From Lama guanicoe (taxonomy: Eukaryota): a stretch of 64,000 nt of DNA. A program made the translations under genes and the position numbers. Numbering within the stretch: the stretch's first letter is position 1; each line of letters opens with the position of its first letter. The stretch is from NCBI GenBank assembly GCA_013239625.1, contig MU053629.1:2755567-2819566 (forward strand), written 5' to 3'. Positions 56,342 through 57,222 of this stretch are shown here, one piece after another. The notes beneath the pieces are model-generated. The model saw only the letters and a program-made list of their open reading frames with translations, did no database searches and had not been told where the DNA came from.

Positions 56342-57097
56342 CTGCGGGCGGGGAGGGGGACGCTAACTGCGCGCTCGGCCACCAGGGGCCCTGCCCCCGC
56401 CCCCAAACACCTGACGACTCCCACATCCCCTCCACTCACTCTAACCTCTCCCTGATTCACCCGTCCCCGCCAAAACACTCTAAGCAGCGCAGCCATAGCT
56501 CTCTTCCTGCCCCTGCCCCACAGTGACCATTCTCTTCTCCCCGAATTGTTCCCCAGGCCTCCTCAGCCTCCCCAAAATACCCTGGCTCTTCCAGGATCTC
56601 ATCGCATTCCCGCACTTACACTTCCTTCTCCCTTACCTCCCTGTATCCTACACCTATCAGATTTATCCCTCTGCCAGCCCTGAGCGACCCTGTTCCCCAG
56701 TTTTCTCCACCAAGACTATTCCATCTCCCCCCAAAACCTCAGTCCCACCCCTCCCCATTACCCCACCCAGAACACCCCTCCACACCCCCTCAATCACCCA
56801 AGCCGTTCCCTAATCACTCCTCTCCTCTCCCCATTTAACTCCCCTCACTCCATCATCCTCCGATCTCTTTCCACCACTTCCTCTCCTCTAATTACCTAGC
56901 CTTTCCCGCACCACGAAGTACTCCTCCTCATGAGCTCGACCCCCGTAACCCTACCCCTTTTCATCCTCCAGTATCGCCCTTAAGTCCCTCTAACACACCC
57001 AGTTGCCCATTTCCCCCCTCCCCAGTCCTCCCTCCCTCGGCCCCAGCTAACCCTCCCCAATCCGATCTCCCCCACATCTGCTCTCCGTCCCCCCCCA

Positions 57098-57222
57098 AAA
57101 GTCGCGCGTGCGGGGCTTGTTCGCTCGGCAGACGTAGACGCCAGAGTGCCGGGGCTGCGCGCTGGTGATTAGTAGGTTGGTGCGGCCCAGAACGATGACA
57201 TCCGTGGAGATGGGCTTCCCAT
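57098..57222 (-). CDS. IGDCC4: IGDCC4 exon 6 (Ig3, C-terminal half), 3'-truncated in this sequence
   Basis: cgcag|..[41 protein letters not shown], then runs directly into G-rich intron-like sequence with no donor. Confidence 0.85.

Follow-up and report, generated by a model that had tools for sequence, protein, structure and literature searches.

A missing exon end and splice donor in IGDCC4 of a camelid assembly: a probable assembly error or, if real, an ordinary loss-of-function deletion

IGDCC4 in the window and in other camelids

On its minus strand, the window (the whole stretch of DNA that was analysed, 64,000 nucleotides) carries 17 exons of IGDCC4, which run from 61551 to 44577 and cover residue 189 of the camel protein through the stop codon. 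The encoded protein has Ig domains followed by five FN3 domains, and its sequence and exon order fit the named IGDCC4 records; by these marks, the gene is a plain orthologue of IGDCC4, a cell-surface receptor of the DCC/neogenin subclass. We kept the exon numbers (4 to 20) of the initial annotation, which have no gene annotation behind them; exons 1 to 3 lie outside the window. The 16 exons other than exon 6 had been described as intact, and we found this to be true (exons 4, 5 and 7 to 20). AG acceptors are present in 16/16, GT donors in all 15 that have a downstream intron, internal stops in none, and the translations differ from camel IGDCC4 (P0124) at five residues. No second coding lesion was found across these 16 exons.

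Table 1. Features around the break in IGDCC4 exon 6 (window coordinates)
Feature	Position	Strand	Remarks
IGDCC4 exon 5, intact, first half of Ig domain 3	60000..60140	-	141 nt, phase 1-1
IGDCC4 exon 6 remnant	57098..57222	-	125 of expected 156 nt; acceptor intact; last codon F322 (camel P0124 numbering)
Break point	57097..57098	-	about 57 nt absent; exact position +/- a few bases
G8 run directly past the break, with T4 before the G8	57089..57096	- (C8 on plus strand)	
Cryptic donor GAT/GTGGGG, weak, in-frame	57074..57076	-	exon end 57076; would replace 10 residues by 7
Cryptic donor AGG/GTTAGC, weak, in-frame	57050..57052	-	exon end 57052; would replace 10 residues by 15
In-frame TAG	57047..57049	-	old intron stop
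Predicted G-quadruplex-type tract	56998..57058	-	about 40 nt past the break; pattern match only
Remainder of intron 6	56342..57097	-	756 nt; first ~100 nt colinear with the intron of other mammals
IGDCC4 exon 7, intact	55928..56341	-	414 nt; starts in phase 1; protein 100% identical to Camelus ferus P0005

The same gene is represented by records from three camels, Camelus ferus, dromedarius and bactrianus (Nope; XP_032336818.1, XP_064341542.1 and XP_074222414.1, the last of which we take to be C. bactrianus; P0124), and from the alpaca, Vicugna pacos (XP_072818319.1; P0132). The window differs from the alpaca record at four residues, compared with five for camel, and it agrees with alpaca at Q598, A1065, A1086 and a Gly near the C-terminus, where the camels differ; on this basis it belongs to a South American camelid. 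Exon 9 (54564-54701) encodes Ser at residue 567, a position occupied by Gly in both camel P0124 and alpaca P0132. At residue 321, one codon before the break, alpaca P0132 reads RTRYF, while the window and the camels read RTRDF.

Exon 6 ends early and lacks a donor

From a normal acceptor at 57222, exon 6 retains 41 codons, which are identical to those of camel and end with RTRDF at 57098. Read on the minus strand past RTRDF, the frame stays open for 16 residues and then meets TAG at 57049-57047. The initial annotation had reported the loss of the 3' end and splice donor of this exon, and this was confirmed: conserved reading stops after RTRDF, and the bases after the last conserved codon are TGGGGG where GT is expected. 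The G8 run that it placed beside the break is likewise present, at 57096-57089. It had measured the remnant against exon 6 of the paralogue IGDCC3 (5166-5008), which does have 159 nt and a GT donor; the orthologous IGDCC4 exon, however, is 156 nt long, so that 31 exon bases are missing.

These bases encode the final beta-strand of Ig I-set domain 3, which follows the second cysteine of that domain and, as had been claimed, is absent in the window. The ten-residue strand (ATAAAELRVL in camelids) continues the exon in 119 of 120 long homologues, the single exception being an out-of-frame model. From 218 fetched records we set aside 29 in which we failed to find the exon 5 anchor, the exon 8 anchor or both; the strand is present in 186 of the remaining 189, which span exons 5 to 8, and the other three are out-of-frame gene models. 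It is conserved from reptiles and birds to mammals, and camel P0124 and P0125 and alpaca P0132 all carry it. The lost residues line up with the final strand of the Ig domains of DCC, and in a structural model of the orthologue P0198 they form the strand at 257-274 (pLDDT above 90); an earlier fold of P0140 (pLDDT 36) did not contain the strand and was discarded. Three UniRef gene models (P0071, P0138 and P0139; ground squirrel, dingo and black bear) have exon 6 in a wrong frame, so that mis-modelling of it extends to other genomes.

To size the hole, we used proteins that read through the exon 6 donor in other species. A search with the junction ORF returned 30 short proteins, nearly all of which are gene-caller read-throughs of exon 6; the strand is present in 30/30, and 27 run on with GE, as a G/GTGAG donor would read. 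Of 54 short ORFs (P0141-P0194), 21 fit a pattern anchored on SRC/SRR in the intron; in every one of these, 14 intron codons precede the anchor where the window has five, although these read-through ORFs fall into few clusters, are not independent and are given without species. When nine read-through tails were slid along the window intron, the best-fitting loss was 57 nt for four, 58 nt for another four (through a one-base shift further on) and elsewhere for one; four of the nine tails end at the window's own stop. Together, the anchor spacing and the tail fits suggest that about 57 nt are gone, namely 31 nt of exon (residues 323-332 and the split codon) and about 26 nt of intron including the GT donor, assuming that camelids have kept the spacing. 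The TAG is the old intron stop, as the same position closes the read-through ORFs of other mammals, and on these alignments the DNA past the break is ordinary intron with no inserted DNA. We found no repeat pair flanking the break that would explain the loss and no tandem repeat overlapping the site, and scans of metagenomes for orthologous DNA gave no matches.

A loss common to all camelids is excluded. The camel and alpaca records carry residues 323-332, which the window lacks along with the donor, and no fetched protein shows the junction. The junction peptide occurs in 0 of the other 386 fetched proteins, a count that weighs little, given that among them we recognised no read-through ORF from a camelid in either form, and exact look-up of junction ORFs found 0/3 in the collection, which is weak in the same way since a camelid control is lacking. 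A search of protein representatives yielded no further recognisable camelid ORF, the members listed for ten more clusters (at most 15 each) included no camelid record, and IGDCC4 protein records from llama, guanaco and vicuna were not found.

Assembly error or deletion

The initial annotation offered two readings, a recent deletion or an assembly collapse, and this choice stands, with the artefact favoured: we give slightly better than even weight to the possibility that the assembly dropped about 57 bases and that the gene is intact in the animal. Two contig ends or reads may have been joined at the T4/G8 run, which probably lies inside a CpG island with the G-quadruplex-type tract just downstream, and the joint would then have been written without Ns. 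Consistent with this, the lesion is the only one in a gene that is otherwise open, canonically spliced and five residues from camel, the strand is intact in alpaca P0132 and camel P0124/P0125, and homopolymer runs adjoin the break, which lies in a CpG-rich region. Gaps do occur in the assembly: the window contains one stretch of 50 Ns (3930-3979).

On the GC-rich cause proposed for a collapse, the evidence points both ways. The flanks are only 63-72% GC, and stretches of at least 80% GC at 19.6-20.2, 25.1-25.3, 38.4-38.9 and 56.17-56.41 kb are gap-free, so that simple GC dropout is at most a candidate cause. No N stands at the junction, and no stable hairpin was found across the joint: the DNA strand there folds less stably than 196 of 200 shuffles, in a fold that does not contain the missing piece. 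A recent real deletion would leave the rest of the gene just as undamaged. We also compared 24 sequencing runs by their share of sequence words with the region, leaving small-share runs unused. The share was 87-97% in fourteen runs of four organisms, with 0.97 in run X1, a possible source of the window, which is without about 13 of 444 sampled words; the joint costs about three words, the same as one SNP, so these shares cannot discriminate between the readings.

Precedents exist on both sides. In PMC9516821 (Kim et al. 2022), assembly errors are reported to cause false gene losses in roughly 26-60% of genes across four older assemblies. Like those cases, the lesion described here is single, sits where an exon meets an intron in a GC-rich portion of a conserved gene, and is absent from relatives; unlike them, it contains no N, whereas the commonest types there, verified with reads, were the absence of whole exons and runs of N within coding sequence. 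PMC7671337 (Sharma and Hiller 2019), on validated gene losses in mammals, counts a splice-site-removing deletion as an inactivating mutation, a type to which the window lesion would belong. The validation described there calls for the mutation in a sister species, or for at least five reads with none ancestral; the window lesion differs, as the alpaca and camel proteins are intact. Further inactivating mutations, which according to the same source accompany old losses, are absent in the 16 exons.

A recent germline deletion of 57 bp, private or segregating, probably heterozygous and carried into the haploid assembly by chance, is a serious contender that we place somewhat below an even chance. 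The joint is clean and without Ns, harder DNA nearby assembled well, and the coding exons are without other error, all of which a deletion would explain. Loss of the gene is also tolerated: Igdcc4-null mice have been bred and studied for infection (PMC8675923) and for body fat (PMC8409770), so that a real allele could persist. Against this, the strand has been kept from reptiles and birds to mammals, and the absence of the junction peptide and its ORFs elsewhere counts, weakly, in the same direction.

We consider fixation of the deletion very improbable, whether in a single species or in a population of South American camelids, with IGDCC4 lost there or its third Ig domain remodelled through a cryptic donor or exon skipping. 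The residue differences from alpaca and camel would allow the window to come from a species or lineage other than that of the alpaca record. South American camelid species interbreed, however, so that a fixed difference between them is less likely; alpaca and three camels are intact, the 16 other exons hold no second lesion, and neither in-frame donor is strong. On the other side, null mice are viable (PMC8409770, PMC8675923). For a real donor-less allele at high frequency in one South American camelid lineage, whether a natural knockout or a rebuilt Ig3, we see a slim chance. Our literature search found nothing on IGDCC4 in camelids; supplementary variant tables could hold the deletion. Scarcely credible, finally, is foreign sequence brought in by insertion or rearrangement in place of the exon end: the change to G-rich sequence is abrupt, but we reject this reading since the DNA past the break fits eight of the nine intron-derived tails of other mammals, in register and with the same stop.

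Predicted products of a deletion allele

If the deletion is real, its transcripts would probably be a mix: some with exon 6 skipped in frame, some that run into the TAG and are degraded, and a few spliced at the weak in-frame donors. The initial annotation had predicted a stop allele subject to nonsense-mediated decay. This stands for intron retention and for out-of-frame donors, which would reach the TAG, and is incomplete in leaving out exon skipping: the end of exon 5 and the start of exon 7 are both in phase 1, and exon 6 (phase 1-1) can therefore be skipped with the computed frame open to the normal stop. Skipping would remove residues 282-333, including the second cysteine of Ig3.

Both cryptic donors that had been proposed, at 57052 and 57076, exist and keep the frame by computation. 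The first was described as adding a 15-residue insert, which we correct to a replacement of residues (Table 1). Scored by pairing with what we take to be the motif at the U1 5' end, the two sites reach -5.0 and -4.1 kcal/mol, respectively, compared with -12.2 to -4.6 (median -10.0) among the gene's 15 real donors; this score is crude, as one real donor is weaker than 57052. The strongest donor-like site in the intron, at 56637 (-10.1), is out of frame and lies past the TAG, which would be met whether 56637 is used or the intron is retained in full. Use of the weak in-frame donors would put Gly-rich residues in place of the last strand. Every route would thus remove or replace the last strand of Ig3, and because each product breaks this domain, the allele would be expected to be null or near-null.

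Implications

The break in exon 6 probably reflects an assembly error; the alternative is an ordinary loss-of-function deletion, and both are familiar kinds of lesion. An error would serve only as a warning: IGDCC4 would be called broken by gene-loss screens and by annotation of this assembly. A private deletion would count among the loss-of-function alleles that any animal carries. Wider interest would attach to it only as a common or fixed allele, which would give a livestock group a natural null. IGDCC4 is reported to aid entry of influenza virus into cells; in mice, loss of Igdcc4 lowered H5N1 replication (PMC8675923) and raised body fat (PMC8409770).

Observations on the neighbouring IGDCC3

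Several features of IGDCC3 were seen in passing. The 50-N gap at 3930-3979 falls in a pyrimidine tract, a few bases before the acceptor of an open IGDCC3 exon (3921-3756). The intron after this exon, which ends at 3756, starts with GC (AG/GCATGT; window 3755-3748, minus strand) and is a GC-AG intron. A read-through protein, P0269, has NNNRP at this intron site, which would fit a GC start in another species. An IGDCC3-type Ig-domain exon lies at 35898-36215 (minus strand), with about 28 kb between it and the next exon of IGDCC3 (at 7613); the C-terminal 107 residues of a python protein, P0112, match it, which points to a fusion of the two neighbours in that gene model. Finally, short tandem repeats of GCA and CGGGGC occupy 38651-38851 in a stretch of at least 80% GC, which is probably the first exon of IGDCC3 with its CpG island.
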